Assembly: GCA_964388085.1 (NCBI GenBank)
Contig: CAYLZW010000002.1
Location: 225-64,224 of the forward strand
Source: an uncultured Myxococcales bacterium
GTDB lineage: Bacteria > Myxococcota > UBA727 > CAYLZW01
Direction of reading: 5' to 3'
DNA length: 64,000 bases
Shown here: positions 4,772 to 43,254 of the stretch, in pieces
Numbering within the stretch: position 1 is the first letter of the stretch
Layout: each line of letters begins with the position of its first letter
Notes under the pieces: generated by a model
What the model saw: only the letters and a program-made list of their open reading frames with translations
The model's database searches: none
What the model was told of the DNA's origin: nothing
Made by a program: the position numbers and the translations under genes

Positions 4772-4774
4772 CGT

Positions 4775-6157
<1,383 letters not shown>

Positions 6158-8499: not shown

Positions 8500-8582
8500 C
8501 CCGATGCGGCCTCTGGCCCCGCGGCCACCGTGACCTAGCGCACGTGCTAGCCTGCGCGCAGATCGGGTGTGGGAGCACGAAC

Positions 8583-9512: not shown

Positions 9513-9519
9513 CGCCGGC

Positions 9520-14213: not shown

Positions 14214-14349
14214 TGTCCCTCCACGCTTTGGGTGCCGCCTACGTGCGGGATCGCAGGTCGAGACGAGGAGTATAGACGACACAGGCACGTCGCCGCGCGC
14301 TGCCAGGCCCTCGGTTGCGACGCCCAAGGGCACCTGCGATTCTCGACGG

Positions 14350-17300: not shown

Positions 17301-18084
17301 GGACGCGCCGACGATGACGCTGCCGCTCGGGCCCGGGCGCATCTACACCAGCCTGTTCTCCATCACGACGTCACGCTTCGACGTCGAGAACATCGGGACC
17401 GCGGTGGACAAGGAGCTCGCGCTCGAGGCGCTGCTCGATCCCTCCTTCTTCTGGTTCCCTGGCCGCGAGACCTGGTCCGACGTCGAGCTGTGGATGGTGA
17501 ACTTCTATTGGACGCACGCGCCCGAGCTGCTCGACGTCATGGGCTCGGTCATCGTCGCAGACACCACCCGGCTCGCCGCGTACTGGGACGGCGACGAGGC
17601 CAGCTACCGTGACTTCACGGATCTCTCGTCGACGTCCGCGGGCGTCGCCATCGACCCGGCCATCGGCTTCAGCCTGCGCCTGCGCGCCGCCATCTACGGC
17701 ATCGGCCTGCTCTACAGCGGCTACGTCGACAAGTCCTTCCTCGATTACAGCCGCATCTACGTCGTGGGCGCGGACGACGAGGTCCCGCTCGATCCGAGCG
17801 TTCCCGTCGTGGACTTCCTCGATCCCCGCACCGGCAAGCTGTATCGGGCGCCCAGCTTCCTCACCGTCGAGGGCATCGAGCTCGGCATCGGCGCGCGTCT
17901 GCTACAGAAGGCGCAGGGCTCGCTGTTGGCCTCGACGGGCGCGGCATCGCCCGAATACGCGGCCTGGGCAGCGGACATGCTGAAGGACGACCTGGCGGTC
18001 ATCGAGCTGCTGCGCGGGCTCGTGCAGCGCTTCGAAGACGCGACGTTCACCGGCCCGATCAACTCTCTGGATCGGCTCCCGTGA
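14350..18084 (+). CDS. Large secreted lipoprotein with metzincin-type zinc-protease motif
   Basis: Signal peptide with lipobox (LPLLSC). HELGHAFGLTH = HExxHxxGxxH metzincin zinc site in mid-protein. Start may be 14350 or 14386. Confidence 0.75.
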   Translation: MRCPPLARLRRRMRLVVMLVCSLPLLSCVEPPEQPDALPYWMLNKAHFADGGEWYFQRTVTEVPYTAGFTFVGDADLVDRIQWKIEEGFLIAYRAHPLIGGNEHDVAGGNDYDAPVAMYPIRRHFDVEGDSVIERPMRPWYERGWMDVDWGNDLVTSHRFSVARLERGGPSYVVTDPSDPEAIRFGVRSGGGWQDSMGGELPRMPRIDHIEFTTHVTVSPTLQADPETGNPGCNGGIADSIIDIYDCAPSDIAFRTSILRRLPDNDFEQKKRPTGLLAKRWFARFFQMGTYFLDDEYGLTDAGLDLKVSHFGIWQRSTDDDGAPLPYRERKVRPIAFHVNGNFDPALLGVARDALESWDEAFVETVRDLRLSECVDAGGSAADCAGDVEVPEDVLVFCPHNPVQKDDPEACGIAGTVARVGDLRYNMLAWITTPNVNRIVGLAWWAPDLQTGEIVNASAKLYAPDIDRAAATTRDAILLMRGDITPEDLFRGGYVPSSMADLEELVHSLERYSEDPFAANIEVSERTRPFGGPDGSPVPGQSLGTPDTFDGASFRSSSLAPFVGTRFESSAVDVESLLLAGIDPRSDDLSAEMIGAASPLRRSFASRPRRLTETKLRELGGDLDLPVAADLAYLLDETSELSADELYQEVRRRFAQATMMHELGHAFGLTHNFSGSYDAFNYKQGYWDARDPTPRYDRQPSPGERDGNLTDYAYASVMDYHPSANAYLHGIGSFDKAAIKWLYGDLVEVFDPGDGDLELLKAMWFRQPEPHLPTVIVDDPSHPGGHTHRSLHPAKLAQEYPNLLQRDWVPLAKLEDPYDWGAPLAAADGRVAVPYLSCNDELIGVLPYCQPYDMGLDPYEIVSNLSNWYHAYYMLNSFRRARLDFSTTRYVDQMWMRVFFPLKKWQNWLAHSQWEFAMQEPTVHSDEDFLEPLARSADVSFNFLARLLAVPNFGPHRQVTMPTGEELLVTHEFNLAISHPDPPMDAPTMTLPLGPGRIYTSLFSITTSRFDVENIGTAVDKELALEALLDPSFFWFPGRETWSDVELWMVNFYWTHAPELLDVMGSVIVADTTRLAAYWDGDEASYRDFTDLSSTSAGVAIDPAIGFSLRLRAAIYGIGLLYSGYVDKSFLDYSRIYVVGADDEVPLDPSVPVVDFLDPRTGKLYRAPSFLTVEGIELGIGARLLQKAQGSLLASTGAASPEYAAWAADMLKDDLAVIELLRGLVQRFEDATFTGPINSLDRLP

Positions 18085-22612: not shown

Positions 22613-25165
22613 GTGACCGTCGAACGACCGCTGGGACGCGACGACCTCGAGATCGCTCCTCGCATGGTGAACGGCGAGCTCACCTACTTCGTCGCGGATC
22701 CGCTGAAGAACGAATACCAGCAGCTCGAGGAGCTCCAGTACGAGGTGTTCCGCCGGCTCGACGGCCAGCGCAGCATCGACGACATCTGTAAGGAGCTGTA
22801 CGACACCTACGAGCTCGAGGTGGACGCACAAGAGCTCGCCGAGTTCATCGACAACCTCGGTGAGCTCAACCTGCTCGACATCACGAGCGACGAGCGCGTC
22901 GACACCAAAGACGGCCTCGACCTCGCGAAGAAGGTGAAGAAGTTCCTCGAGCGCGAAGGCGTCGCCTACAGAGGACGGGGCGTCGCCAGCCGCGCACCGC
23001 ACGGTCGCGAGCGGCGCGGCAACCAGCGCGACGCGCAAGCCATCGACCGCGCGCTCGAGCACCTCGACCGGGGTGAGATCCGTCCCTGCGCCATCGTGCT
23101 CCGTCAGCTGCTGACGACGAGCCCGAGCAATTGGCGGGCGCGCTATCTGCTTCAGGCCCTACAGAAGGCAAACGTCGGCGGCCTGCGCAACATCGACAAC
23201 GCGTGGTGGTGGCGGGTGCCGCTCACGAACCCGGATCGCTGGCTCGGGCGCCTCGAGCGCGTGCTGCGGCCGTTCGTGTTCAACCGCCTGTTCCTGCCCG
23301 CGTTCCTGCTGCTGTTCGCGTTCGCCTGGGTCCTCGTCGGCTACCAATGGGAGCGCCTCGAGCAGGACCTGCGCCACATGATGCGCTTCGGCTGGATGCT
23401 CGAGTACCCGCTGTTCTTCCCGCTCTTCTTCCTCTCCGTCACGCTGTCGATGGCGCTGCACGAGCTCGCCCACGGCGTGACGTGCAAACACTTCGGCGGC
23501 CACGTCCGGGAGATGGGGCTGCTGTTCGCCTACGGCAGCCCCGCCGCCTATTGCGACATCTCCGCGACCTATCTCTTCGAGAACCGCTGGCATCGTGTCG
23601 CGGTGCCCGTCGCCGGCCCCATCTTCACGCTCGCGTACTGGGCGCTCACCGTCGTCGTCTACTCGCTGGTGGAGTCGAACAGCGCCCTCGGCGTCTATTG
23701 CGTGGTGTCGATCCCGCTCATCATGGTCGAGAGCATGGGGGCGATGCTCAACCCGCTGGTGAAGAACGACACCTATTACGCCCTCACCGACGCCCTCGAC
23801 TATCCGAACCTGCGCGATGACGCCTTTCAGTATCTGCAGGCGCGCGTCGAGGGCTGGCTCGTCGCGCAGCACATCGAGATGCCGGAGGAGATGGAGGCGC
23901 GACGCGGCACGCTGCTCGGCTACGCGATCCCCGGCACCCTGTTCACGGGCGTCGTCATCATCGCGATGCTGTACACGTTCGCCCAGATCCTGGTTCGCGA
24001 GCTGCACACGCTGGGGCTCATCCTGAGCGTCGCGTTGTTCTGGTACACCGTCGCCCGCCCCGTCCGTCGTTGGTTCGGGAGCTTGTGGCAGCGACGGGCG
24101 CTGTTCTGGCAGTCACGCCGCTTCAAGCGCATTGTCACGGCGACGGGGACGGCGCTCGTGTTGGCGCTCATCGCCCCGTGGCCGCTACGCATCGAAGGCC
24201 CTTGCACCGTGACCCCCGAGATCAAGAAGGTGCGCGCGCCGCGAAGCGACATCATCGTCGAGGTGCTCGCCCAGGAAGGGGAGCATGTCGCGGAGGGGCA
24301 GCCCCTGCTCCGGCTGCGATCGGAAGAGCAGGTCGCCGCGCTGATCCACGCGGAGGCCGAGCTCGAGACCGGCGAGCTCGAGCTGGCGCGCCTGGTCACC
24401 GGTATGCGCAGCGAAGAACGCGGCGTGCTCGTCGCCCAGGTCACGAGCGGGCGGCGCTCGCTACGCGCCGCGGCAGCTCGCGTTCACCGCCTGCGCAGCC
24501 TCGTCGGTCGGGGGCTCGCCTCCCGCGCGGCCCTCGAGGAGGCGCTCGCCGCCGAGGCCGCCGCGCGCACGGACGCCTCGTCGGCGTCCATGAAGCTGCG
24601 CGCGAAGGCCGCGGCGGCGTCGTCGAGCGACCTGATGATCGCGCAGTCGCAGGTCGAGCTGCTCATCGCGCAGCGCGACGCGGCCCGCCGGGAGCTCGAG
24701 CAGTCGCTCGTGCGCAGCCCCGCCGACGGCTATGTCCTCTCGGTCCCAGGCACTCCCGCCAGCGAGCTCGTCGGCTCGCACCTCGAGGCGGGCACCGAGC
24801 TGCTGCGCGTGCGCACCGGCGGCCCGGTCCGCTTGTCCGTCGAGATCCCCGTCACCGAGCCCATCTCGTCGCTGACGCCCGGCGCCAAGGTGGAGGCGCG
24901 CCTGCTCGGCTTCCCCTCCCTCGCCATCGCGGGCACGCTCGAACGCGTGAGCCGATCGTTCGCGGAGGCGTCGCAGAACGACACCGGCATCTCGGTCTTG
25001 CCGGCCGACGTGCTCCTCGACGAGGAGAGCGTAGCGCCGGGGACGCTCGCCGCGGGCCTGAGCGGGCGCGTGAGCATGCGCGCCGGCTGGCATCCGGTCG
25101 CTTGGCACATCTATTTGCGTGTCGCGCGGCTCATCCAGATCGACGCGAGCCGCCTGCTCGGCTGA
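22613..25165 (+). CDS. Tripartite fusion: PqqD-like (RRE) domain + M50-like membrane zinc protease + HlyD-like adaptor
   Basis: GTG start with AAGGAGG RBS. The N-terminus DDLEIAPRMVNGELTYFVADPLKNEYQQLEELQYEVFRRLDGQRSIDDI is PqqD/RRE-like. HELAHGV (HExxH) sits within a multi-TM region. C-terminal hairpin/coiled-coil HlyD-like region (EAELETGELELARL...). Confidence 0.8.
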   Translation: MTVERPLGRDDLEIAPRMVNGELTYFVADPLKNEYQQLEELQYEVFRRLDGQRSIDDICKELYDTYELEVDAQELAEFIDNLGELNLLDITSDERVDTKDGLDLAKKVKKFLEREGVAYRGRGVASRAPHGRERRGNQRDAQAIDRALEHLDRGEIRPCAIVLRQLLTTSPSNWRARYLLQALQKANVGGLRNIDNAWWWRVPLTNPDRWLGRLERVLRPFVFNRLFLPAFLLLFAFAWVLVGYQWERLEQDLRHMMRFGWMLEYPLFFPLFFLSVTLSMALHELAHGVTCKHFGGHVREMGLLFAYGSPAAYCDISATYLFENRWHRVAVPVAGPIFTLAYWALTVVVYSLVESNSALGVYCVVSIPLIMVESMGAMLNPLVKNDTYYALTDALDYPNLRDDAFQYLQARVEGWLVAQHIEMPEEMEARRGTLLGYAIPGTLFTGVVIIAMLYTFAQILVRELHTLGLILSVALFWYTVARPVRRWFGSLWQRRALFWQSRRFKRIVTATGTALVLALIAPWPLRIEGPCTVTPEIKKVRAPRSDIIVEVLAQEGEHVAEGQPLLRLRSEEQVAALIHAEAELETGELELARLVTGMRSEERGVLVAQVTSGRRSLRAAAARVHRLRSLVGRGLASRAALEEALAAEAAARTDASSASMKLRAKAAAASSSDLMIAQSQVELLIAQRDAARRELEQSLVRSPADGYVLSVPGTPASELVGSHLEAGTELLRVRTGGPVRLSVEIPVTEPISSLTPGAKVEARLLGFPSLAIAGTLERVSRSFAEASQNDTGISVLPADVLLDEESVAPGTLAAGLSGRVSMRAGWHPVAWHIYLRVARLIQIDASRLLG

Positions 25166-25182: not shown

Positions 25183-27531
25183 TCACGCGTTCGCGTGCGG
25201 ATCGCGATTGCGCTCCCCCGGTGGCAGACACGGGCGCCCCGCGCGCGCCGCGACCTCGTCGAGGCGAGACGTCGCCAGCCGCCGGCTCTGGCGTCCCGGC
25301 GTGAGCTCCACCAGCCCGGGCACGAGCACCTTGCAGACGCGGAAGCCGATCTCCGCGATCTCGTCGGACACGAGGTCGAACGCGAAGGCCTCGAGGTCGC
25401 GCTCCTCCAGCGCGGCGAGGATGTGCTCGACGTCAGTCCTCGGATCGACGCCGCCGACGGGCGCGATGTCGTCGAGCGCGACGGTGTCGTCGGCGACGAG
25501 AAACGAGAGCTTCGCCGCGTTGGCTGGGTTCAAGTAGTAGAGGTACGTCGGGAACCAGGTGCGCCAGCCCTGCTCCACGTCTTCGGGATCATAAGGCGTA
25601 TTGCGCCAGTCCTTGGCGGGGTCGGGCGTCATGCCGAGGGTCTCGTAGTGCAACGCCAGCTCGCACAGCCCTCGCGAGAGCGCGGCTCGTGGGTCCAGAT
25701 CGGCGGTGGCGACGACGACCATCCCGCCCGCGTCGAAGTTTCCGCGCCGCTCGCGCATGCGACCGAGGGTCAAGAAGGCCGGCAGATCGAAGTCGATGCG
25801 CAGATCGAGGACCACGACGTCCATGCCCGCGGCGTCGACGAAGCGCAGCAGCTCATCCGCATAGGCGTCGGGCAGCGTCGGCGGGAGCCGCACTCGCCGC
25901 AACGCCATGCGTTTGTACCACGCGATGACGTACTGATCGCGCTCGATGACCTCGCGCAGACCGTTCAGCAACGCGCGACGATAGGACACGTGCGACGCGC
26001 CGCCCGTCGTCAGGTTCTGATCGACGACGCGGTTTGGGTACGTGTCGTCGGTGAGGCACGGCGTCACGAGCTCTTGCGGGAACAGCTTCGCTTCGCCTGT
26101 CTTCAGCGAGCATCCCCAGGTCCAGTTGAGCGGGTGGTCGTCCGAGAAGCGGGGGCGCGGAAAGCCCGGCGTGCGGTATTGCTCCTCCTCGTAAAGGATC
26201 AGGCCGCGCGGATCGAAGGCGTGCCCGGCGACGTCTCGGTACGGCACGCCGACGAGATAAGGGCGGTGCGTGTACTGCGCGTAGCGCTCTATCCCCTCGC
26301 TCATCGACACGAGGCGTCGATGCTGCAGCGTCGGGCCCGTGCCGTTGATGCCCTGAAACCCCGTGGAGATGTGCTCTCGGCCGCGGGCGAGCGCGACGCC
26401 CCCCCAGCACAGCGGGAAGCGGCGGAAATAGTGCGCGCGCTCGCTCCACTCCTCGGCGTACTTGAAGATGCCCGTGGCCGGGTCGTTGTAATCCAGCATC
26501 AGGCGGTCGTCGGGCACGTCAACGTCGACGTCATCGCGCAGGATTGCGCGCCAACGCTCGGCATAAGCGCGCGCCGCGTCGTCGAGGGGCGCCGCGCTCG
26601 CCCCCGTGAAGGCCTTGACGCTCGGTCCGCACGCCGGGCAGTGCGCGTGGCGGATGACGCGATGTGCGGTCACCAGCCCGGTGCGATGGCAGACGCGCAC
26701 GGCGGCGTCGCGGCGTCCGGCGAACGCGCCGTCATCGTCGACGGCGGAGAGAAACCCCAGCAGCGCCGCGGCGACGCGCTGCGCTCGACCATCGACGGTG
26801 CGCGCCGCGAAGCGCACGACCGGCTCCCGTTCCGCCGCGTCCCACAGCTCGACCTGATGCCAATGCACACGCGCCATGACGCGCAGCGCGAGACAGGTCG
26901 AGCACGGCGTCGCCGACGGGCGCAGCGGCCCGATGAACGTCTCGTCGGCCATGAGCACGACGGGAACGAAGCTGAGCCCCAGCTCGAGCGCAGCGGCCTC
27001 TAGCTGGTCGCGCCTGCGATCGTGCACGGTCTGAAAGCAGGCGACCACGAGACATCCCCGCGCACGCGCGAGGTCGCTCGGGTGCGCGCTCGCCAGGACG
27101 GTGACGTCGATGCCGGCCGCTCGCAGCGCCTCCGCGACCGAAGGCGTGGTCGCGTCGTCACCGAGGAGGAGCGCCCCCTTCGCGAGCGCGGCCGCGACGC
27201 GCGTGCTCGCGAAGTCGAGTGAGACCGCGGAGGCCCGCTCGACGGCGCCCTCCGCCAGGAGGAGATCGAGGACCTCTCCGACGTCGTCCTCCCCGAGCCC
27301 GCTCGCCTCCGCCAGCTCCCGGAGCGTCTTCGGCTGCTCGAGGCCGCGCAGCACCGCGCCGACCGGTCCGTCTGCGTCCGCGTCGATCTCCCGCACCATC
27401 TCGCGGTCCGACACCGCGATGCGCCCACTTCGGGAGAAGCACGTGACAGAGCTGACGAGTTGGTAGCGCGCCTCGGCCGGAGCTTCGTTGGGGGCGCGCG
27501 CGTCGGCGGGAGCCACTTCGTCGTGCGACAT
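25183..27531 (-). CDS. Fused E1-like (ThiF/MoeB-type, with CxxC) / YcaO-domain protein (RiPP-type cyclodehydratase or thioamidase)
   Basis: YcaO motifs GTGPTLQHRRLVSMSEGIERYAQ (SEAIERY-like), WGGVALARGREHISTGFQGIN and a proline-rich C-terminal region. The N-terminal half is Rossmann-like with HCPACG. Most N-terminal ~80 aa are helix-turn-helix/RRE-like. Confidence 0.85.
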   Translation of the reverse strand: MSHDEVAPADARAPNEAPAEARYQLVSSVTCFSRSGRIAVSDREMVREIDADADGPVGAVLRGLEQPKTLRELAEASGLGEDDVGEVLDLLLAEGAVERASAVSLDFASTRVAAALAKGALLLGDDATTPSVAEALRAAGIDVTVLASAHPSDLARARGCLVVACFQTVHDRRRDQLEAAALELGLSFVPVVLMADETFIGPLRPSATPCSTCLALRVMARVHWHQVELWDAAEREPVVRFAARTVDGRAQRVAAALLGFLSAVDDDGAFAGRRDAAVRVCHRTGLVTAHRVIRHAHCPACGPSVKAFTGASAAPLDDAARAYAERWRAILRDDVDVDVPDDRLMLDYNDPATGIFKYAEEWSERAHYFRRFPLCWGGVALARGREHISTGFQGINGTGPTLQHRRLVSMSEGIERYAQYTHRPYLVGVPYRDVAGHAFDPRGLILYEEEQYRTPGFPRPRFSDDHPLNWTWGCSLKTGEAKLFPQELVTPCLTDDTYPNRVVDQNLTTGGASHVSYRRALLNGLREVIERDQYVIAWYKRMALRRVRLPPTLPDAYADELLRFVDAAGMDVVVLDLRIDFDLPAFLTLGRMRERRGNFDAGGMVVVATADLDPRAALSRGLCELALHYETLGMTPDPAKDWRNTPYDPEDVEQGWRTWFPTYLYYLNPANAAKLSFLVADDTVALDDIAPVGGVDPRTDVEHILAALEERDLEAFAFDLVSDEIAEIGFRVCKVLVPGLVELTPGRQSRRLATSRLDEVAARAGRPCLPPGERNRDPHANA

Positions 27532-27653
27532 TCTCTCTCGACGAGCTCGTCGCTCGCGCTCGCAGGGCGGCGATCGCGGGAGCAGACGAGGAAGAAGGTG
27601 GAGGGGCGCTCGCGCTATCCCGCCTTACGGTGGGCCGCTAACAGAACCGATGA

Positions 27654-27773
27654 TCAGGTGTACCCAATCACCGGGCTCGACCCACGCGCTTTCATGGGGG
27701 CCGTCTTCTTCTCGAGCGTCTTGACCTTGAGGTTCAACTTCTTCTTCTCAGGAGCCTGAAGCTTCGCGTCCAT
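27654..27773 (-). CDS. Candidate small ORF (39 aa, Lys-rich: MDAKLQAPEKKKLNLKVKTLEKKTAPMKARGSSPVIGYT)
   Basis: 33/38 codons end in G/C, consistent with genuine coding. AAGAGG lies 6 nt upstream of the ATG. Located in an AT-richer 470-nt divergent region, same strand as and ~120 nt upstream of the YcaO gene. Confidence 0.35.
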   Translation of the reverse strand: MDAKLQAPEKKKLNLKVKTLEKKTAPMKARGSSPVIGYT

Positions 27774-27998
27774 GGTCTGCCTCTTGATTCGCCAGCGCAC
27801 CATATCGAGAACGACGTAGGTGGCATGGGGCACGTGAACAAGGTTTCCCTTGCACACGACATCTCACTCAACGACGCGAGTGCCCCTCCTCACTGATCTG
27901 TAGTGCGGGAAGACACGCCGACGCAAGCTTGCTTCCCGATGGGACATGTGCGCGGGTGTAGTCGTGTCCGTTTTACACACCCGCGCTAGAGTGTCGTC

Positions 27999-30329
27999 GT
28001 GACCATCGAACCCTCTCCGCAACAGACCGGACGCTTCTCGTCGTCGGGCCTGTCGCTCGCGTACGAGGTCCACGGTGACGCGCCGCTCACGCTCGTGTTC
28101 TTGCCCGGCGTGGGCTTCTCCCGAGTGTGCTTTCGGCCCATCGCTCGCTACCTCGCCCGACATGTGCGCTGTGTCCTCGTGGACGCGCGGGGCACCGGCG
28201 AGTCCGAGGCACCCGAGGGGGACGACGCCTACGCGCTCGCGCGGCAGTCGGACGACGTCATCGCCTTGCTCGACCACCTCGAGATCGAGCGTGTCGTCAT
28301 CGTTGGGCACTCCTTCGGCGCCAACGTCGGCGTGGATGTCGCGCTGCGTGCGCCGTCGCGCGTGCAAGGGATCGCGCTGCTCTCGGTCGCGCTCGCCGCT
28401 GAGCTCATCGACGCGGCGCTGCAGGTCGCCGGTGACGATCCCGACCGATTGAAGGTGGACGTCCCGGCGGCGCTCGCGCCTGCCATGCGCCAGTGGCCCG
28501 CGCCGGGGGACGCGCTGTGGGGGCGCGAGGGACACCACCGCCTGACCGGCAAGATGCGCGAGATCGATCAGCGCGACAAGGTCGCGACGCTGCCGATGCC
28601 CTGGCTCGCGCTCGTCGGTGCGCGCGACCCCATCTCGGCTACGTCGCTGCCGCTGCTGCGGGACCTGCTGCCGCCGGCGCGCTGCCTGCTGCTCGACGAG
28701 GCGGGTCATCATCCACACATCGAGGCCCCCGAGCGCAGCGCGGACGAGATCGCGCGCTTCCTTCAGCAAGCGGTGCTCACGCCGCCCGCGTCCGCCACGC
28801 CGCCGCTGCGCGTGACGGTCACGCTCGTCGAGCAGGAGGACGGTGTCGTCGTCGATGACCAGCTCACCGGCTTCTCCTTCGCGCTCGGCGAGAGCGAGGC
28901 CGCCATCCTGCGCGGGCTCGGCGGCGCGCTGCCCGAGCTGGCGCGCGCCGTGGACGTCGCGGAAGACGACGTCGCGAGCTTCATCGAACAGCTCCGCGCG
29001 CTCGGGCTCCTCTCGGAGGGCCTCTCGGCGGCCGAGATCGAAGGGCGCCAGGCGATGGCGCGCCGCGCGTCGCGGGACGAAGAGCGCTTCGAGGCCGTCC
29101 TGAACGCGATTCGCTTCGCCTTCGATCGCGTCTCGCTGCACCGACAACGGATGAGCGCCGCGGGCGTCACGCCCGACGACCTCGCTGAAGAGTCGGACCT
29201 CGGCCGCATCCCGCCCATGACCAAGGACGTGCTGCGGGCACATTTCCCCGATGGGCTCGTGCCCGACGGCGTCGACGTCGCCTCCCTGCTGCGGGACGGC
29301 AAGATCGTCGTCGGCGCCACCAGCGGAAGCACCGCCGAGCGCCTGCAGGTGCTCTTCGACGCGTCCGCCGGCGGGCTGCCGGAGGCGTCGCACTCTCTCT
29401 GGGGCCTCGACGACGACGTGGAGCTGAGCTCAGGCGCGGTGTTCACGAGCCCCATCTGCGCGGGCTTCGAATGTCACCTCGGCATGACGTCCAAGGCGGC
29501 GCGGACCCGCGGCTCGACGCTCACGCTCAACTCTTGCGACGATCCCTTCGCCATCAGCGACGAGGAGGTGCGCGCCATCGCCGCGGAGATGCGCGAGTAC
29601 CAGCCGCGCGTGCTGTTCGTGAACCCCTGGTACGCCGTCGTGCTGTTGCGACGGGTCCGCGCGCTCGCGCTCACGCTGCCGGACGTCGACGTCGTGCTGG
29701 CGAGCTATCAGTACCTGACCCGCCGTCATCGCCAGCTTTTGCGCCAAGGCTTCCGCGCGCCGGTGTTCTCCTATTACGGAGCGACGGACCTCGGCGGCGC
29801 GCTCATCGGGGTCGAGTGTCACCGTGGATCCATGCATGTGCGGGAGGACCACGTGCACCTCGAGATCGAAGCGCTCGGCGGGGATGACGACAGCCTCGGC
29901 TGGGTCACCGTCACGACGCTGTCGAGCCCGCACATGCCGCTCGTGCGCTATCGCGTCGGCGACCTCGCTCGTCCGACGCCGGAGCCCTGCCCTTGCGAGC
30001 AGGGGGGCGAGTGGCGCTCCTTCATCCTCGAGGGCCGCGCGCGAGACACCCTGCAGAGCACAGGCCGGCGGACCGTCACCACCCGCATGATCGACGACGC
30101 CATCGGTGAGGACGGCCCCGACTTCTATCGCCTCGTGCAAGAGGGCGGCGACCGCTTTCGCCTCGAGACGCTGAGCGGCGCCGATGAAGCGCACGCCATC
30201 GGCGCCGCGCTCTCGCGCTTGCCGCGCGTGCTGGGAGAGGGCGCGCGTATTCGCGCCGTCACGGTGAAGCAGTTCTCCCCCGAGCGCTCGCTCAAGTTCC
30301 GCCAGACCGTGCGCGAGGACTCGGCATGA
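27999..30329 (+). CDS. Alpha/beta-hydrolase domain fused to PaaK/CoF390-synthetase-like adenylate-forming domain
   Basis: N-terminus LVFLPGVGFSRV...VIVGHSFGANVG (GxSxG nucleophile elbow). C-terminal half has the phenylacetate-CoA-ligase-like layout (GATSGSTAERL...YYGATDLGG...VRYRVGDL). GTG start. Confidence 0.75.
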   Translation: MTIEPSPQQTGRFSSSGLSLAYEVHGDAPLTLVFLPGVGFSRVCFRPIARYLARHVRCVLVDARGTGESEAPEGDDAYALARQSDDVIALLDHLEIERVVIVGHSFGANVGVDVALRAPSRVQGIALLSVALAAELIDAALQVAGDDPDRLKVDVPAALAPAMRQWPAPGDALWGREGHHRLTGKMREIDQRDKVATLPMPWLALVGARDPISATSLPLLRDLLPPARCLLLDEAGHHPHIEAPERSADEIARFLQQAVLTPPASATPPLRVTVTLVEQEDGVVVDDQLTGFSFALGESEAAILRGLGGALPELARAVDVAEDDVASFIEQLRALGLLSEGLSAAEIEGRQAMARRASRDEERFEAVLNAIRFAFDRVSLHRQRMSAAGVTPDDLAEESDLGRIPPMTKDVLRAHFPDGLVPDGVDVASLLRDGKIVVGATSGSTAERLQVLFDASAGGLPEASHSLWGLDDDVELSSGAVFTSPICAGFECHLGMTSKAARTRGSTLTLNSCDDPFAISDEEVRAIAAEMREYQPRVLFVNPWYAVVLLRRVRALALTLPDVDVVLASYQYLTRRHRQLLRQGFRAPVFSYYGATDLGGALIGVECHRGSMHVREDHVHLEIEALGGDDDSLGWVTVTTLSSPHMPLVRYRVGDLARPTPEPCPCEQGGEWRSFILEGRARDTLQSTGRRTVTTRMIDDAIGEDGPDFYRLVQEGGDRFRLETLSGADEAHAIGAALSRLPRVLGEGARIRAVTVKQFSPERSLKFRQTVREDSA

Positions 30330-31546
30330 GCGAGCCCCTCGACGTCGCCCGCGTACGCAGCGACTTCCCGTTGCTCGCGCGCGAGGTGCACGGACGCCCC
30401 GTCGTCTATCTCGACAACGCCGCGACCACGCCGAAGCCGCGCGTCGTGCTCGAGGCGATGCGCCGCTACGACGAGGACATCAGCGCGAACATCCACCGGG
30501 GCAAGCACCTGCTGTCCGAGGAGGCCTCCGAGCTGTTCGAGGACGCGCGTCGCAAGGTCGCGCGTTTTCTGAACGCGGCGCCCTCCGAGGTGGTGTTCAC
30601 GCACAACACGACGCACTCGTTAAACCTCGTCGCGCTCGGCTCTCGCCTCGACGGAAGCGCCAACGTGGTCACGACCGTGCAGGAGCACCACTCGGTGCTG
30701 ATGCCGTTTCTGCAGCGAACCAATGTGCGCTTCGTCCCGGTCGGCAAGGATGGCCGCGTCGATCCACAGCGGGTCTTCGACCAGGTCGACGACGACACGG
30801 CGCTCATCGCCGTGGCCTGGGCGTCGAACGCCACCGGCGCCGTCCAGCCCATCGCGGAGATCACGCGGCGCGCGAGGGAGAAGGGCATCCCGACCCTGGT
30901 CGACGGCGCGCAGGCGGTCCCGCACCTGCCCGTCGATGTCGACGCGCTCGGTTGCGACTTCCTCGCCTTCTCTGGTCACAAAATGCTGGGCCCGACGGGC
31001 GTCGGCGTCCTTTGGGGCAAGCGAGACCGCCTCGAGGCGCTCGGCTCCCCCCTCCCCGGAGGCGGCTCACCGCGGCTCGTCACGCCGAGCGGCTTTACCC
31101 TGAAGCCCGTGCCCCACCGGCTCGAGGCAGGCACCCCCGCCATCTCGCAGGTCATCGGCCTCGGCGCTGCCGTCGACTACCTGCAGTCCTTTCCGCCGGA
31201 GTCTCTGCTGGCGCATGAGCGAGCGCTCGCCGAGCGGCTGACGCGCGGCCTGCAGGACATCCCCGGCGTGGAGCTTCTCGGCCCGCCGGCCGGCGAGGAG
31301 CGGCTCGCGCTGGCGTCATTGGTCCTGCACTCGCAATCGCTGAGCGGCGACCACGTGGCCATGATCCTGAGCGACACGAAGTCCATCCTCGTGCGCTCGG
31401 GCCATCACTGCTGTCACCCGTACTTCGACTCGTTCGGCGCCAACGGCGCGGTGCGTGCGTCGGCTTATCTCTACAACACCCTCGAGGACATCGACGCGTT
31501 CACCGACGCCTTCCGCGAGATCGTTTCCCGCCTCTACGCTTCTTGA
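30326..31546 (+). CDS. Class V aminotransferase-fold cysteine desulfurase (SufS/CsdA-like)
   Basis: LDNAATTPKP, SGHKMLGPTGVGVL (PLP-lysine), HHCCHPY... with RxGHHCA-like persulfide cysteine region. Start overlaps the stop of the upstream gene (ATGA). Confidence 0.85.
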   Translation: MSEPLDVARVRSDFPLLAREVHGRPVVYLDNAATTPKPRVVLEAMRRYDEDISANIHRGKHLLSEEASELFEDARRKVARFLNAAPSEVVFTHNTTHSLNLVALGSRLDGSANVVTTVQEHHSVLMPFLQRTNVRFVPVGKDGRVDPQRVFDQVDDDTALIAVAWASNATGAVQPIAEITRRAREKGIPTLVDGAQAVPHLPVDVDALGCDFLAFSGHKMLGPTGVGVLWGKRDRLEALGSPLPGGGSPRLVTPSGFTLKPVPHRLEAGTPAISQVIGLGAAVDYLQSFPPESLLAHERALAERLTRGLQDIPGVELLGPPAGEERLALASLVLHSQSLSGDHVAMILSDTKSILVRSGHHCCHPYFDSFGANGAVRASAYLYNTLEDIDAFTDAFREIVSRLYAS

Positions 31547-33421: not shown

Positions 33422-35890
33422 ATGCACCCTCCCCTGTTACCGACCCCGCCCCAGGGCGCGCACGAGAGCGCGCGAGGCATCTCTCGCGTGCTCTCGGGGC
33501 ACCGTCTCGCGCGCATCGGACTTCGGCGCCTCGGGCAGGCGCGCGTGGTGTCCGCGCTCTCCGAGCTGCGCGTCGTGGCGTCGTCGCACGAGGCTGCGTT
33601 CGCGGCGACGGTCGCGGCCGAGGTCGCGCGGCGGAGCGGAGACCTGCGTGGCGCTGCCGCGCTGCACAAAGACGCGGCGGAGCAGTGGCGAGAGGCCGGC
33701 AACGCGTCCCTCTCCGCCGTCGCGCTCGCGCTCAGCGTCGAGGACGCCGTGCTCTCCGGCGAGCTGCAGAGCGCGCAGGCGAACCTGCGCGACGTCGAGG
33801 CGGCCGGCGGATCGGTGCACGTCGCGAACGCGTTCTTGAGCTTCGCGCGCGGCGACACCGCGGCCGCGCGCGCGTCCTTCAAGGTGTTGATGGACGCGGC
33901 GCCCGGCGACGCGTGGGCGGCCTGCTGGGTCGACGCCTACGGAGCCGAGGTCCTCGTCGAGATGGGCGCGCTCGTCGGGGCCCAACAGGCGCTCGACAGG
34001 CTCGGCGGCAGGCTCTCCCCCGAGCACCGCTTCTCCGAGGCGTTCCTGCGACACGCCGTGCTGCGCGCCCGCCATGAGTCCTTGCGCCGCCTGACGCTCG
34101 GCGGTGATGAGGACGACGAGAAGGCCAAGCTGCACGCGCTCGTCGTACGCGCGCAGCGCTACGCCCAGGGGTTCCCGCTCTATCGCGCGTGGGCGCATCA
34201 GGTCGCGGGGGAAGAGGCGCTGCTCAACGCGGGCGACCCCGCCGCCCTCTTCGACAAGGCCATCGCGGACGCCGAGGAGGCCGGCAGCCCCTACCTGCAC
34301 GGGCGCCTATTGGCCCGTCAGGTCGAGTCGATGCGCGCCGTCCAGGAGCGGCGCTCCAACCCGCGTGCCTTGCGCGCGCGCAGCCTGCTGCTCGACTCCG
34401 GCGCGACCGGCTTCCTCGGCGCGCTGACGACGTCGAAGGGCGGCGCTCCCGAACGGATGCCCTCGCGCATGTCGATCGCGCTGCGCCTCGAGACGTCGCT
34501 CGATCAGATGAACCTGAGCGACGAGGCGGGGCTCGACGCCGTCATCGAGGTCAGCCGCCACCTCCAGAGCGTGCGCAGCCTCGACGAGCTGCTCGAGCGC
34601 ATCGTCGACTCGGTCTCGCGCGTGCTGCGCGCCGAGCGAGCCGCCCTGCTCAAGCACGACGGAAGCGAGTTCGAGTGCCTGGTCGCGCGCGGCATCGCCG
34701 CCGCCGACGTTCGCGAGGGCAACAAGGGTGTCTCGTTCGGCGTCGTGCGCGAGGCGATGCGCTCGGGAGAGCCGGTGCTGTCGGACAACGCGCTGGCCGA
34801 CGCGCGCTTCATGGATCGGGCGTCGGTGATGGCGACCGACATCCGCTCGGTGCTGTGCTCGCCCATCCGCACCAAGGACCACACCTTCGGCTTCCTCTAT
34901 CTCGACCGCCGCCTCACCGGTGTGCCGTTCTCGCCCGAGCACCTCGACCTCCTGGCCGCGTTCTCCACGCAGGTCGCGGTCGCCTGGGAGAACGCCGTGT
35001 CGTTCGAAGAGATCGCGCGCCTCAATGAGGGCCTCGAGCGGAAGGTCAGCGATCGCACCGTCGAGCTGCGCAAGAAGAACGACGAGCTGCAGACCACCCT
35101 CGACGAGCTCACCAACACGCGCCTCAAGCTGGCCGAGGCCGAGCGCGACGCGCTCGAGAAGGAGATGCAGCTCGCGCGCGACATTCAGCGTTCGATCCTG
35201 CCCCCCGAGGACACGCAGCGGCTGAGCGGCCTGTCGGTGTGCGGCCAGGTGATCCCCGCGAGCTATTGTGGCGGCGACTTCTGGGGGTACGCCGCGCTTC
35301 CCGACGGGCGCACGCTCGTCATCATCGCCGACGTCACCGGGCACGGAATGGCGTCGAGCTTGATCACCGCGGTGGCGCGCTCCTGCCTCGACACCCTGCG
35401 AGAGCAGGAGGCCATCCGCTCCGCCGCCGACGTGCTGCGCACCATGAACCAGGTCATCTTCGCGTCCGCGCACGGGAAGCTCTGCGCCACCGCGTTCGCC
35501 GGCATCTTCGATCCGGCGGCGCGGCAGCTCTCCTTCGGCAACGCCGGACACAACTTCCCGTATCTGCTCCGCGAGGGCGCCGACGCCGCGCCGCTCGTAG
35601 CAGCCGGCACCCGCCTCGGGGAGGCCGCGAACACCGACTTCGAGACGCACGTGCGAGAGATCCTGCCGGGCGATCGGCTGGTGCTGTTCACCGACGGCAT
35701 CATCGAGTGGCCGAACGCCAAGGGGAAGGACTACGGAGACCGGCGCTTCCGCAAGTCCGCGCAGGCGCGACGGGGCGAGGCGCCGGACGAATGCATCCGC
35801 GGCCTCATCGACGACGCCACGGCGTACACGGACGGCATCGAGCGTGACGACGATCTGACGCTGGTGATCGTCGACGTCGCCACCGAGTGA
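33422..35890 (+). CDS. GAF domain + PP2C-family (SpoIIE/RsbU-like) Ser/Thr phosphatase with N-terminal TPR-like region
   Basis: PP2C motifs GGDFWGY, IADVTGHGMASSL, FGNAGHNFP, LFTDGIIE, DDLTLVIVD. Preceded by a GAF-like segment (LDELLERIVDSVSRVLRAERAALL...FLYLDR) and a coiled coil. Confidence 0.85.
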   Translation: MHPPLLPTPPQGAHESARGISRVLSGHRLARIGLRRLGQARVVSALSELRVVASSHEAAFAATVAAEVARRSGDLRGAAALHKDAAEQWREAGNASLSAVALALSVEDAVLSGELQSAQANLRDVEAAGGSVHVANAFLSFARGDTAAARASFKVLMDAAPGDAWAACWVDAYGAEVLVEMGALVGAQQALDRLGGRLSPEHRFSEAFLRHAVLRARHESLRRLTLGGDEDDEKAKLHALVVRAQRYAQGFPLYRAWAHQVAGEEALLNAGDPAALFDKAIADAEEAGSPYLHGRLLARQVESMRAVQERRSNPRALRARSLLLDSGATGFLGALTTSKGGAPERMPSRMSIALRLETSLDQMNLSDEAGLDAVIEVSRHLQSVRSLDELLERIVDSVSRVLRAERAALLKHDGSEFECLVARGIAAADVREGNKGVSFGVVREAMRSGEPVLSDNALADARFMDRASVMATDIRSVLCSPIRTKDHTFGFLYLDRRLTGVPFSPEHLDLLAAFSTQVAVAWENAVSFEEIARLNEGLERKVSDRTVELRKKNDELQTTLDELTNTRLKLAEAERDALEKEMQLARDIQRSILPPEDTQRLSGLSVCGQVIPASYCGGDFWGYAALPDGRTLVIIADVTGHGMASSLITAVARSCLDTLREQEAIRSAADVLRTMNQVIFASAHGKLCATAFAGIFDPAARQLSFGNAGHNFPYLLREGADAAPLVAAGTRLGEAANTDFETHVREILPGDRLVLFTDGIIEWPNAKGKDYGDRRFRKSAQARRGEAPDECIRGLIDDATAYTDGIERDDDLTLVIVDVATE

Positions 35891-40513: not shown

Positions 40514-42760
40514 TCACCCGCGGGGCGGCTTCTTTCGCTTCGGCGCCTTTGCCGGTGCGGCCGCCTCAGCGGTCTGTCGGAGCGCGCCGTGAAGGGTGAT
40601 GCCGCCGTCGATGGAGATGGTCGAGTGCGTGGGCGTCAGAAGCGGCAGGTCCATGGCGCCCGACTCGTGGGAGCGCGCGGCGAGCGCCTCGAGCCACTGC
40701 GAGAGATGAGCGGCCGTGGCCACGCGAGCGATCGCGACCAGCGTCGCCTCGAGCTCAAGCTGCAGCGCTCTCGCCGACGAGAAGCGCGCGTCCGGCTCGC
40801 GGCTCACGCAGCGCGCGATGATGTCGTCCAGCGCGCCCGGCACATCGGGGCGCACGGAACGGACCGAGGGCACCGGCTCGTTCAGCACCGCGAACATCGA
40901 CATGTACTCGCTGTCGCGGCGGAACAGCGGCGTGCCGGTCAGCATCTCCCACAGCACCACGCCGACGGCCCAGAGGTCCGTGCGCCGATCGACGTCACCG
41001 CGCGCGGGGTCGATCTGCTCCGGCGCCATATAGATGACCTTGCCCTTCAGGTTCCCCGCGCGCGTCTCGAGCAGCGAGTGCGCCACCTTGGAGACGCCGA
41101 AGTCCGTGAGCTTCACGGCGCCGTTCAGGGACAACAGGACATTGTGCGGCGAGACGTCGCGGTGGACCAGCTCCAGCACCCTGCCGTCGTCATCGGCGCA
41201 GCTGTGCGCCGCGTGCAGGCCGGCACAGATATCGGACGCGATGCGACACGCCAGCTCGACGGGCAGCGCCACGTCCAGGTGCTGCGCGGCGCTGATGACC
41301 GAGCGCAGGTCCCAGCCGTCGACGAGCTCCATGGCGATGAAGTAGCCGTCGTCGTCTTGGCCGAGATCGAAGATCTGCACGACGTTCGGGTGCGTGATGG
41401 CCGCCGCCACACGCGCCTCTTGCAGGAAGAGCTGAGAGAAGTGTTCGTTGGCTGCCAGCTCCGGCAGGATTCGCTTGAGCGCGACCTGCTTGACGAAGCC
41501 CTCGGGCCCCCGCTGCTTGGCGACGGAGACCTCCGCCATACCGCCGCGCCCGAGCGGTCGGACGGCCTCGTAGCGGGTGAGCGCGGAGCCGCTCAGCGTC
41601 CCCGTCGAGGGCGGCGCGCTCGCCGGCACACGGACGGCGCCGACGTCGGGCAGCGCTTCGCCGGGATGCGCTGCCAGGTAGGACATCACCGCGCTCGGCA
41701 CGCGCTCGGCGAACAGGTCGAGGACCTCCGTGGCCCCAGCGGCGCTGTCGACCGGCCATGGGGCGCCGCACGCGGGACAATTCGCGCGTGGCTCGCCGGC
41801 GTGCACAGGAGAACGATCCGTGGACGACCTCGCGAGCAACGCCTTCATCGCGATCGCGTCTAGCTCCAGGGTGACGAGCTTCGCACAGCTCGCGCACGAC
41901 GACGACAGCAGCACGGTGGCGACGCGTCCCGCGAGCGCCGCCTGCAGCGGAGCGTTGCCCGTGTCCAGCAACGAGAGCGGGACCCTCGCCCAATACACGT
42001 CCGCGTCCGCGCTCTCTGCGACGTCGAGCAGCCTGCTGCTGCCAGCGTCGTCGACGCTGGTGACGCCCGCCAGCACCACGAGCACGATCCCCTCGAACCC
42101 GTCCGCGAGGCGCCGGAGTCGCGCCTTCGACGACACGCAGCCCTGAAGCCACAGGGAGGTGACGAGGCCGGTCACCTCCTTTTGGGCACGAAAGGGAGCG
42201 GGCCGAGGCGACGTCGCCGCGCCGAGCGCGACGTCGACCAGCGCGTTCAGCGCCGACGGCAACGGCGGTGAGCCCTGCGTGCGCGCGAACGACAGGTAGG
42301 CCTCGGGCACGTCGTCGAGCTCGGCCTCGGCGCCACAGCGATGACAGCGCGCCACGGGGAGCGGCGCGCTCGGCTGCAGCACGCTCTTGCCCGGCGGCGT
42401 CCGCAGGTCCACGAGGAGGTCGGTCTCGACGTCGCACGCCTCACACACGTAGGGCAGATAGAAGCTGACGAGCGCGGCGCCTCCGGCGAAGCCGCCCACC
42501 ATATTGAGCTGCGCCACGATCGCGGGGCGCGCGTGGATGATGCAGGCGTGCTCTACGTCGAGCGCGCCCATGGCGGAGACCCATTCGCGCACGCCAAACG
42601 ACGTGATGCGCCTCACCCCGTCGAGGTCGAAGACGACGAGGCCCGCCAGATCGCGCAGGTCCGCTCGCTGGAAGCTGGCGTCGAGCTCCCCCGCGATGTG
42701 GACGAGCGTGCCTCCCGGCAGCTTGCGCTTGTCGATGCGCAGCGTCTGGCTCGGCGCCAT
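40514..42760 (-). CDS. 2x(STAS + zinc ribbon) - Hanks Ser/Thr kinase, paralog C
   Basis: Start MAPSQTLRIDK. STAS-1 VVFDLDGVRRITSFGVREWV + VCEACD...CHRCGAE. STAS-2 with SCASCAK...CPACGAP. Kinase motifs GRGGMAEV, VALKRI, HRDVSPHN, DFGVSK, YMAPEQ. Confidence 0.85.
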   Translation of the reverse strand: MAPSQTLRIDKRKLPGGTLVHIAGELDASFQRADLRDLAGLVVFDLDGVRRITSFGVREWVSAMGALDVEHACIIHARPAIVAQLNMVGGFAGGAALVSFYLPYVCEACDVETDLLVDLRTPPGKSVLQPSAPLPVARCHRCGAEAELDDVPEAYLSFARTQGSPPLPSALNALVDVALGAATSPRPAPFRAQKEVTGLVTSLWLQGCVSSKARLRRLADGFEGIVLVVLAGVTSVDDAGSSRLLDVAESADADVYWARVPLSLLDTGNAPLQAALAGRVATVLLSSSCASCAKLVTLELDAIAMKALLARSSTDRSPVHAGEPRANCPACGAPWPVDSAAGATEVLDLFAERVPSAVMSYLAAHPGEALPDVGAVRVPASAPPSTGTLSGSALTRYEAVRPLGRGGMAEVSVAKQRGPEGFVKQVALKRILPELAANEHFSQLFLQEARVAAAITHPNVVQIFDLGQDDDGYFIAMELVDGWDLRSVISAAQHLDVALPVELACRIASDICAGLHAAHSCADDDGRVLELVHRDVSPHNVLLSLNGAVKLTDFGVSKVAHSLLETRAGNLKGKVIYMAPEQIDPARGDVDRRTDLWAVGVVLWEMLTGTPLFRRDSEYMSMFAVLNEPVPSVRSVRPDVPGALDDIIARCVSREPDARFSSARALQLELEATLVAIARVATAAHLSQWLEALAARSHESGAMDLPLLTPTHSTISIDGGITLHGALRQTAEAAAPAKAPKRKKPPRG

Positions 42761-42762
42761 CG

Positions 42763-43254
42763 TCAAGTGGAGGTACGTCCCGCCGACTCGTCGACGAAGG
42801 CGAGATACGACTCCGGCGTGTCGTCGAGCTGCATCTCGCCGCCGCACTCCGGACAGGGGGCGCACTCGTCGAGCGTCGGTCGTCGCCCCGGCTGCAGCTC
42901 GAGGGGGAGCGTACGCTCGTCGTCACACGCCTCACAGAAATAGGGCACGAGGATCGACGTCACCGCGGCGTCCCCCCGCATGGTCGCGATCATGCTGAGC
43001 TGCCGGACCATGACGGGCGAGCAGCGCTCGAGCTCGACCTTGGTGGCTTTGCTCGATAGGCGCTGCAGAAAGCCGATCCACTCGCGCACGCCACAGGAGT
43101 TGATGCGTTGGACCTCGGACAGGTTCAGCACCACGCGCTCTGTCGCCGCCGCGACGACACCCGAGAAGTCGGCCTCTTCCGTGATCTCGCCCCTCATGAC
43201 GAATCGATGGGTCGCGCCGCTCTCCTCGAGGCTCCAGGTCAGACCGTCGGTCAC
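42763..43254 (-). CDS. Standalone STAS + zinc-ribbon protein (paralog of 13203..13709)
   Basis: VVLNLSEVQRINSCGVREWI...VELERCSPVMVRQLSMI; FCEACDDE...CPECGGEM. GTG start overlapping the kinase B stop (GTGA). 2 nt before the kinase C ATG. Confidence 0.75.
   Translation of the reverse strand: MTDGLTWSLEESGATHRFVMRGEITEEADFSGVVAAATERVVLNLSEVQRINSCGVREWIGFLQRLSSKATKVELERCSPVMVRQLSMIATMRGDAAVTSILVPYFCEACDDERTLPLELQPGRRPTLDECAPCPECGGEMQLDDTPESYLAFVDESAGRTST

Follow-up and report, generated by a model that had tools for sequence, protein, structure and literature searches.

Here we report that, in a 64,000-nucleotide (nt) stretch of genomic DNA from an uncultured Myxococcales bacterium (contig CAYLZW010000002.1, positions 225 to 64,224; hereafter the window), a gene for a PaaK-family adenylate-forming enzyme overlaps, and is predicted to be translationally coupled to, a gene for a SufS-type cysteine desulfurase beside a YcaO gene. 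This adenylase–desulfurase pair is found again in gene clusters for peptide antibiotics in distantly related bacteria and, on that ground, probably adds cysteine-derived sulfur to the peptide product. The cluster in the window appears to represent a new Myxococcota family of ribosomally made peptides that undergo post-translational modification (RiPPs). The pair and its junction are laid out as follows.

27999–30329, plus strand: gene for an alpha/beta-hydrolase / PqqD-like RiPP recognition element (RRE) / PaaK-family adenylase fusion protein, 776 amino acids (aa), GTG start
30326–31546, plus strand: gene for a SufS-type (group II) cysteine desulfurase, 406 aa, ATG start
30326–30329, plus strand: ATGA stop/start overlap of the fusion and desulfurase genes, with a GAGGA Shine–Dalgarno sequence 6 nt upstream

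Third-position GC content, which we used to pick real genes from the open reading frames (ORFs) of the window (about 70% GC), is of the coding type in both the fusion gene (0.89) and the desulfurase gene (0.86). Their junction reads ...GGC ATG A GC..., the stop codon of the fusion gene lying within the start of the desulfurase gene, an overlap that we read as translational coupling. The initial annotation had proposed that this ATGA links an adenylate-forming enzyme to a sulfur-mobilizing pyridoxal 5′-phosphate (PLP) enzyme, and the linkage is real, recurring across lineages; the YcaO gene, from which the pair was said to diverge, indeed lies on the minus strand 467 bp away. The first protein had been described as a two-domain fusion of a hydrolase and a PaaK-like enzyme: both domains are supported by Pfam and NCBIfam, the PaaK-like one also by a structural model, and a putative RRE between them had been overlooked. 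RefSeq labels such pairs ‘phenylacetate--CoA ligase family protein’ and ‘aminotransferase class V-fold PLP-dependent enzyme’, and nothing more.

At least 12 loci, representing five or more context types, keep the pair, in most cases with a 4-nt overlap; this sample is biased towards loci retrievable by the searches used. The pair is retained as adenylase identity falls from 60% to about 24%, in Myxococcota, Alpha- and Gammaproteobacteria, Actinomycetota and an organism of 32% GC; outside the window, the 4-nt overlap is found in loci L004, L016, L017, L021, L022/L023, L024, L025 and L029. Among the myxobacterial clusters, the desulfurase gene lies directly downstream with this overlap in the window, L004, L016 and L017 (in L016 the order on one strand is adenylase, desulfurase, YcaO) and elsewhere in the same supercluster in L010, in L012 with L015 and in JGI contig 3300071358. 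On a different contig (L014), the genome of L011 has a paralogous RRE–adenylase gene, with a SufS-like gene at a distance of about 3 kb. Conservation of the pair beside YcaO, on which the initial annotation had made its proposal depend, is seen in at least five informative loci, where the pair lies in YcaO clusters. The pair also occurs without a YcaO gene in the stretch examined, in non-ribosomal peptide synthetase (NRPS) loci and in radical S-adenosylmethionine (SAM) or C39-exporter loci, so its chemistry is not specific to YcaO.

These other contexts are diverse. The 32% GC organism (L020) has the pair together with a radical-SAM enzyme, an exporter of the C39 ATP-binding cassette (C39-ABC) type and TolC. 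In L021, ATGA-overlapped genes for RRE–PaaK-like and SufS-like proteins, in an operon with a major facilitator superfamily gene, lie about 3 kb from genes for a YcaO protein (383 aa) and TfuA, and in L022/L023 the pair accompanies double-glycine precursors resembling nitrile hydratase leader peptides (NHLPs) and a C39-ABC exporter. A Rhizobium binae plasmid also carries the pair, as do NRPS clusters on two Klebsiella pneumoniae plasmids (L025, L029) and on Vibrio coralliilyticus pOCN014 (L026), where the gene order is NRPS, DUF6817, NRPS, TauD/TfdA, PaaK-like adenylase, class-V enzyme, serine O-acetyltransferase and phosphopantetheinyl transferase. In the Vibrio and Klebsiella clusters alike, the gene after the pair thus encodes serine O-acetyltransferase, an enzyme of cysteine synthesis, which we count in favour of sulfur insertion. 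In the NRPS cluster of Nonomuraea gerenzanensis (L027), the pair is followed by a type II thioesterase. By comparison, the controls, one true paaK and three PaaK-like genes of glycan clusters, have no desulfurase partner. Pairwise identities of the adenylases and desulfurases co-vary (r = 0.94 over 28 pairs, a correlation confounded by phylogeny), which fits co-inheritance of the two genes. We found no description of the pair in the literature on YcaO, PaaK, RiPPs, desulfurases, thiocarboxylates or DUF6817.

Several of these loci have further features of their own. L021 lies on a 2-Mb contig (JAESFN010000003), with a stand-alone YcaO gene, tfuA and a gene for a 399-aa protein at 14518–17625 (minus strand) and the adenylase operon at 9755–12549 (plus strand); the intergenic region at 9234–9751 holds about three repeated segments. 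In L022, two NHLP-like precursors of 114–124 aa (4404–5150, plus strand), with a ...ELVRGG site and hydrophobic, Gly-rich cores without Asp or Glu, are encoded upstream of a 313-aa protein and the pair, and a C39-ABC exporter with a cyclic-nucleotide-binding domain adjoins. The Vibrio NRPS cluster holds an additional cysS, and we recognized no known product for the gene order of the Klebsiella, Vibrio and Nonomuraea NRPS clusters.

The second gene of the pair encodes a protein with both hallmark motifs of a cysteine desulfurase.

30971–30985, plus strand: PLP-lysine motif SGHKM (K219)
31394–31411, plus strand: catalytic cysteine loop RSGHHC (C362)

It matches Aminotran_5 in Pfam (E = 3.6e-112), its best NCBIfam match is SufS, in a match list that also holds the class-V lyases EgtE and SclA, and among solved structures Synechocystis SufS (1t3i, E = 2e-94) is the nearest. 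Its score on the SufS model TIGR01979 (408.9 bits) is under the cut-off of 475.1, as are those of ten partner desulfurases from other loci (299–395 bits), so that all 11 proteins scored fall below it. In the partners checked for motifs, the catalytic cysteine loop is kept without exception and the PLP-lysine motif, as searched, with one exception. Scanning of the window genes revealed no suf, sufE or sufU, and the closest homologues of the desulfurase (52–63% identity) come, wherever the context is readable, from related peptide clusters. A duplicated housekeeping SufS, which the initial annotation had named as the origin that would undo its proposal, is therefore not what we find. On this sequence evidence, the adenylase–desulfurase pair is neither a chance association nor a case of housekeeping SufS.

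The fusion protein is divided into domains and motifs as follows.

27999–28790, plus strand: alpha/beta-hydrolase domain, with the nucleophile elbow GHSFG at 28305–28319
28791–29060, plus strand: putative PqqD-like RRE, assigned from a profile match and the topology of an AlphaFold2 (AF2) model
29064–30326, plus strand: PaaK-family adenylate-forming domain, the C-terminal ~420 residues
29319–29333, plus strand: adenylase motif TSGST, residues 441–445
29457–29474, plus strand: CX4C loop, C487-AGFE-C492, which aligns with the PaaK1 loop GLFTGGLGAHYG
29772–29789, plus strand: adenylase motif YYGATD, residues 592–597
29949–29963, plus strand: adenylase hinge YRVGD, residues 651–655
29988–29996, plus strand: CXC motif, C664-P-C666, nine residues past the hinge Asp
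30288–30302, plus strand: C-terminal lysine motif SLKFR of the adenylase, with K766 invariant

The C-terminal part matches NCBIfam models for a DVU_1553-type AMP ligase, PaaK and F390-synthetase-related proteins, and a profile of the adenylase family matches solved PaaK structures with E = 3e-48. An AF2 model of residues 265–776 (mean predicted local distance difference test (pLDDT) score, 92.8) superposes in Foldseek on PaaK1, BT_0428, AjiA1, ClxA and NatL2; for PaaK1, E = 8e-25 and the target-normalized template modelling (TM) score is 0.72. By sequence and model, the domain belongs to the PaaK/ANL adenylate-forming superfamily, with the fold and core motifs intact and adenylating activity predicted. 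Its scores are far under the cut-offs of the PaaK equivalogs (NF041878, 66 bits against 700; TIGR02155, 54 bits against 646), and it is therefore a PaaK-family enzyme and not an orthologue of phenylacetate–CoA ligase; the scan of window genes showed no paa catabolic genes.

Between this domain and the hydrolase lies a module of about 80 residues. Pfam gives only a weak PqqD match here (E = 0.09; 13.6 bits, under the cut-off of 23.4), and a faint PqqD match is also on record for the homologue P0002. Positions 6–82 of the family profile match the lasso-peptide RRE TfuB1 (6jx3_B, E = 1.8e-4), and the AF2 model has three beta-strands followed by three helices at pLDDT above 90. These results point to a PqqD-like RRE that is predicted to bind a leader, and the fusion of an RRE to the adenylase implies a leader-bearing peptide as substrate. 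The N-terminal domain is a clear Abhydrolase_1 match in Pfam (residues 32–162, E = 5.8e-26, 92 bits against a cut-off of 25.8), and its triad Ser105/Asp210/His238 is invariant across six fused homologues; NCBIfam and PDB sequence searches for its subfamily returned generic matches only. Eleven further fused homologues or fragments share 45–49% identity (P0001–P0005, P0130; loci L007–L010, L018, L019). Few proteins have the fused form: five full-length homologues came from a word-indexed search covering 5.8 billion proteins, and scans of genomes and metagenomes added more, all from Myxococcota or from metagenome-assembled genomes labelled ‘Deltaproteobacteria’. Forms with the RRE and adenylase and without the hydrolase domain (about 510–560 aa) are as common as the fused form; the hydrolase is missing in L011, L015, L016 and L017, and no TfuA is encoded near these.

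A cysteine signature marks the adenylases that have a desulfurase partner. When 13 partnered adenylases are aligned, all have the CX4C motif and 12 have the CXC motif, the partnered adenylase of L022 being the one without the latter. The CX4C motif aligns with the PaaK1 structure 2y27 at the loop GLFTGGLGAHYG, which we take to line the acyl pocket, and CXC falls in the post-hinge hairpin, which faces the active site in the second half-reaction of ANL enzymes. A HMMER search of 1.84 billion representatives placed at least 150 clusters above 200 bits, with solved PaaKs at about 110 bits, and the motif [STA]PxCxxxxC was found in 92 of the 149 top library representatives, which gives at least 92 clusters, formed at 50% identity, that bear it. 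Judged by these searches, the CX4C PaaK-like subfamily is broad; we found no description of it in the literature.

A candidate substrate, likewise overlooked in the initial annotation, is encoded in the 467-bp ‘intergenic’ gap between the YcaO and fusion genes.

27654–27773, minus strand: gene for a 39-aa precursor peptide, MDAKLQAPEKKKLNLKVKTLEKKTAP-MKARGSSPVIGYT, with an AAGAGG Shine–Dalgarno sequence 6 nt upstream

Its 39 codons specify MDAKLQAPEKKKLNLKVKTLEKKTAPMKARGSSPVIGYT. There are 15 clear homologues and one divergent homologue in Myxococcota contigs, and in ten contigs other than the window they adjoin homologues of the fusion protein; a hidden Markov model built from eight of them recovers each with E of about 1e-21, and further members lie in L011, L015, L018 and L019. 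All of this indicates that they are a bona fide family of precursor peptides. Their common leader follows the pattern K-x-L-x-L-x-V-K-x-L-E-x-K-(T/S)-A-P and, with the leader/core boundary placed by assumption after ‘TAP’, their cores of 12–15 residues end in (S/T/N/C)-P-(V/I)-I-G-x-(S/T/C). Apart from L009a, which has Asn before Pro, and the divergent L017 peptide, all homologues have Ser, Thr or Cys before Pro and at the core end, and a Lys or Arg close to the core N terminus is conserved. Because 11 of the 14 cores tabulated (and, likewise, both L022 cores) have no Asp or Glu, the C terminus is the only universally available carboxylate.

The divergent region between the precursor and fusion genes also holds a repeat.

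27950–27986, no strand assigned: inverted repeat with perfect 10-bp arms, GCGCGGGTGT and ACACCCGCGC around a spacer of 17 nt, 12 nt upstream of the fusion-gene GTG

This repeat is a possible operator or 5′ untranslated region hairpin. A second palindrome lies at 27920–27935, and a hairpin at 27647–27674, possibly an attenuator, overlaps the stop codon of the precursor gene. A promoter scan of the divergent region found no sigma70-like promoter.

The remaining biosynthesis and export genes of the cluster flank the precursor and the pair.

25183–27531, minus strand: fused E1-like/leader-binding + YcaO heterocyclase, 782 aa (YcaO, E = 5e-54)
22613–25165, plus strand: PqqD-like RRE, M50/HExxH intramembrane metalloprotease and HlyD in one 850-aa protein, syntenic in L010, L011, L012 and L016
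20645–22594, plus strand: HlyD-family periplasmic adaptor, syntenic in L002, L010, L011, L012 and L016
31500–33377, minus strand: TolC-like outer-membrane channel, convergent with the desulfurase gene (OEP, E = 2e-36), syntenic in L001, L008, L010, L015, L016 and L018

The 850-aa protein, with its daptide-type HExxH motif, is likely to be a combined leader protease and export adaptor. As predicted from their domains, the cluster thus encodes three separate leader-binding proteins (the YcaO protein, the adenylase and the protease/exporter) together with a tripartite exporter. The YcaO protein scores 203.9 bits on TIGR03604, slightly under the cut-off of 219, and its E1-like half scores 46.6 bits on TIGR03882, over the cut-off of 36.9; the nearest solved relatives are TruD, LynD and MusD, the C terminus (...DPHANA/PHPNA) has only a partial PxPxP, and inspection of the E1-like domain revealed no GxGxxG nucleotide loop. 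The initial annotation had taken the E1-like domain as a sign of a sulfur relay, not expected for simple azoline formation. We find no support for that view: the domain resembles the standard module with which fused heterocyclases that form azolines bind leaders (TIGR03882; TruD/LynD/MusD), exactly what ‘simple azoline formation’ uses, and we rejected it as a sulfur-relay adenylase. None of the window genes scanned has a TfuA or ThiS/MoaD domain, and our search of the window for a small ThiS/MoaD-like ORF ending in GG, a candidate carrier put forward in the initial annotation, gave only non-coding-looking or antisense frames and no credible one.

From these observations we tentatively favour a dedicated RiPP sulfur-insertion module, in which leader-guided adenylation of a C-terminal carboxylate would be followed by transfer of persulfide sulfur. 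The PqqD-like RRE would dock the conserved Lys-rich leader of the 39-aa precursor, and the PaaK-type domain would spend ATP on adenylating a core-peptide carboxylate, most probably the C-terminal alpha-carboxylate of the ...P(V/I)IG-x-(S/T/C) tail. The co-translated SufS-type desulfurase would draw sulfur from free L-cysteine as an enzyme persulfide, and this sulfur, probably by way of the CX4C/CXC cysteines, would pass onto the acyl-adenylate to give a peptidyl thiocarboxylate or, with YcaO, a derived sulfur heterocycle. YcaO itself may act on Ser, Thr or Cys positions or on the modified C terminus, with the alpha/beta-hydrolase domain, which about a third of the homologues lack, as an optional accessory. 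The product would then be released and exported by the RRE–M50 protease–HlyD, HlyD and TolC proteins.

Several observations weigh against this proposal. The YcaO protein appears to be of the azoline-forming type and the cores hold Ser, Thr or Cys; a conventional azoline peptide needs no added sulfur. Nor does the presence of the desulfurase track Cys-free cores, as L010 has both a Cys-containing core and a desulfurase; a rule under which the desulfurase accompanies only Cys-free cores is fitted by the window and by L015/L012 and contradicted by L010, and we rejected it. No desulfurase was seen in L001, L002, L006, L008, L011 and L018, which are mostly short contigs. The CXC motif also occurs in BT_0428 and ClxA, PaaK-like proteins that have no desulfurase partner, so it is not unique to the subfamily and could be a structural metal site. 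We also found no precedent for a PaaK-family enzyme that acts on a peptide C terminus.

A first alternative, raised in the initial annotation, is that the pair supplies sulfur for thioamidation by YcaO; the hydrolase would free sulfide from a thiocarboxylate or persulfide donor as TfuA does, and the sulfur would end in the backbone and not at the activated carboxylate. In its favour are the overlapping genes of L021 about 3 kb from YcaO–TfuA, the same-strand order of L016 and three cases in which a hydrolase accompanies the pair (the fused alpha/beta-hydrolase, TfuA in L021 and the type II thioesterase in Nonomuraea); moreover, how sulfide reaches YcaO enzymes that have no TfuA is an acknowledged open question (PMC13063428). 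L021 is, however, a single case of such adjacency, and the window YcaO resembles the fused E1-like/TruD–LynD type, which is associated with azoline formation, and not the stand-alone thioamide type. The NRPS, radical-SAM and C39-exporter loci have the pair with no YcaO in the stretch examined, and the hydrolase is dispensable, being absent, with no TfuA near, from L011, L015, L016 and L017. We therefore consider thioamidation unlikely to be the role of the pair.

The closest solved relatives of the adenylase raise a different prospect, as they include NatL2 (6siw), AjiA1 (6wuq) and ClxA (9s3l), which form esters or amides independently of CoA. The adenylase might accordingly be a peptide ligase or acylase that adds no sulfur, joining the C terminus to a Lys or an N-terminal amine or forming an ester or amide as those enzymes do, while the desulfurase serves an Fe–S or metal–sulfur centre on the four cysteines. 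The four conserved cysteines could make a metal site, and the conserved Lys or Arg near the core N terminus also speaks for a ligase. It would nevertheless be costly to maintain a private desulfurase for one cluster-binding enzyme over five phylum-level lineages; the partnered L022 member has no CXC half of the putative site; and the serine O-acetyltransferase gene by the pair in Vibrio and Klebsiella suggests stoichiometric use of cysteine rather than use for a catalytic cofactor. We regard a sulfur-free ligase as rather improbable.

A third possibility, which we hold to be quite improbable, is PLP chemistry without a persulfide: the adenylase would join free cysteine (or another amino acid) to the carboxylate, and the class-V enzyme would then act on the adduct as a C–S lyase, aminotransferase or decarboxylase. 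The class-V fold includes the lyases EgtE and SclA, which are also in the NCBIfam match list, every scored partner is under the SufS cut-off, and no SufE or SufU acceptor is encoded among the window genes scanned; a lyase route of this kind has reportedly been discussed for YcfA/YcfC of 6-thioguanine. Against this, an RSGxxC loop is present in every partner examined and the PLP-lysine motif in all but one, and the best matches are always SufS or CsdA. Finally, a housekeeping or duplicated SufS that merely happens to sit beside the cluster is extremely unlikely and was rejected. The position of the desulfurase does vary among related clusters, and several contigs show none; but unrelated lineages and cluster types have the pair with its overlap, the nearest context-readable relatives of the desulfurase are in the same clusters, the window genes scanned include no other suf genes and its SufS score is below the cut-off.

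Returning to the sulfur-insertion module, a broader formulation is conceivable, although we think it less likely than not: the CX4C PaaK-like and SufS-like enzymes may together constitute a widespread, undescribed ATP- and cysteine-dependent thiocarboxylate synthase of RiPP and NRPS pathways. The peptide of the window would then be the first RiPP with a C-terminal thioacid, which YcaO might close onto the preceding amide (as a C-terminal thiazolone or 5-hydroxythiazole) or use as an in-cis sulfur donor for TfuA-independent thioamidation.

The proposed chemistry has partial parallels in known systems. Like ThiF/MoeB with ThiS/MoaD and an IscS-type desulfurase, the pair would adenylate the C terminus of a polypeptide with ATP and then use the persulfide of a PLP desulfurase. 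The adenylase here, however, has the ANL/PaaK fold and not the E1 fold of ThiF/MoeB; its presumed substrate is a 39-aa leader peptide ending in S, T or C, whereas ThiS/MoaD are ubiquitin-fold proteins ending in GG; and the desulfurase is SufS-type rather than IscS-type and operon-linked to the adenylase, with no credible GG-ending ORF in the window. YcaO–TfuA–ThiS-COSH thioamidation also shares features with the window cluster, namely a YcaO protein, the YcaO–TfuA genes by the pair in L021 and the need for a sulfide equivalent, but the window has no TfuA or ThiS, its YcaO is of the fused heterocyclase type and the pair also occurs without YcaO. Similarly, the YcaO protein has the length (782 aa) and the E1-like leader-binding + YcaO architecture of TruD/LynD/PatD, whereas similarity to these cyanobactin heterocyclases is weak (E = 4e-10), PxPxP is partial, and the precursors, exporters and accessory enzymes are unrelated.

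In natural-product pathways, the thiotetronate proteins StuS/StuJ (TlmS/TlmJ) combine a cysteine desulfurase with an ATP-dependent sulfurtransferase (PMC5518548). As is proposed for the pair described here, they unite a PLP sulfur mobilizer and an adenylating enzyme to put sulfur into a secondary metabolite, but they have been recruited from primary metabolism, with genes located away from the cluster. The 6-thioguanine proteins YcfA/YcfC are reportedly another pairing of a cysteine desulfurase with an ATP-dependent sulfurtransferase; in the thiotetronate and 6-thioguanine systems the adenylating partners are PP-loop ATPases (thiouridylase-like) and not PaaK/ANL enzymes, and the desulfurases are NifS/IscS-like. 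In thioplatensimycin biosynthesis (PtmA3/PtmU4), an ANL-type acyl-activating enzyme is said to start the conversion of a carboxylate to a thiocarboxylate; that route is said to run through an acyl-CoA and a CoA-transferase-like enzyme on a small-molecule substrate, with no desulfurase alongside, and so differs from the pair. PaaK, NatL2, AjiA1, ClxA and BT_0428 share the fold and adenylation motifs, but at 16–22% identity, and the adenylase here adds an N-terminal RRE, an alpha/beta-hydrolase and a desulfurase partner.

Beyond the biosynthetic genes, the window encodes a Ser/Thr kinase–AAA16 (STAND-like) protein (9415–13188), a protein of about 1,300 aa with a Met-zincin (DUF4953) motif (14185–18084) and a GAF–SpoIIE phosphatase (33422–35890), which co-travel with the cluster in several genomes (L001, L010, L012 and L015); this association hints that the peptide may serve in regulation or signalling. 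An NAD-dependent epimerase/NmrA-like gene (8475–9512, plus strand) stands directly before the kinase–AAA16 gene, and an NmrA-like NAD(P)-binding gene adjoins the SufS-like gene in L010 (2724–3689, minus strand) and L014 (11247–12128, plus strand). At 54715–55152 (plus strand), between genes for a FAD-oxidase/Fe–S protein and a Ser/Thr kinase, lies a gene whose product is homologous to the Anabaena sensory rhodopsin transducer (ASRT; E = 1e-52); no rhodopsin was found among the window genes scanned. The 64 kb hold at least seven Ser/Thr kinase genes (677–2458, 9415–13188, 40514–42922, 46363–48603, 55271–57733 and others), and genes for PilZ- and STAS-domain proteins accompany them, as is typical of Myxococcota.

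Natural thiocarboxylic acids are very rare, with nine characterized compounds counted in 2024 (PMC10915793), and the delivery of sulfur to YcaO enzymes without TfuA is an acknowledged open problem (PMC13063428). If the sulfur-insertion reading is true, a portable two-gene module for turning activated carboxylates into sulfur-containing groups would account for a gene pair that recurs without annotation in RiPP and NRPS clusters, some of them on Klebsiella and Vibrio plasmids, and would give peptide thioacid chemistry a further tool. A new RiPP family of Myxococcota, whose simple substrate is open to direct test, would be defined as well.

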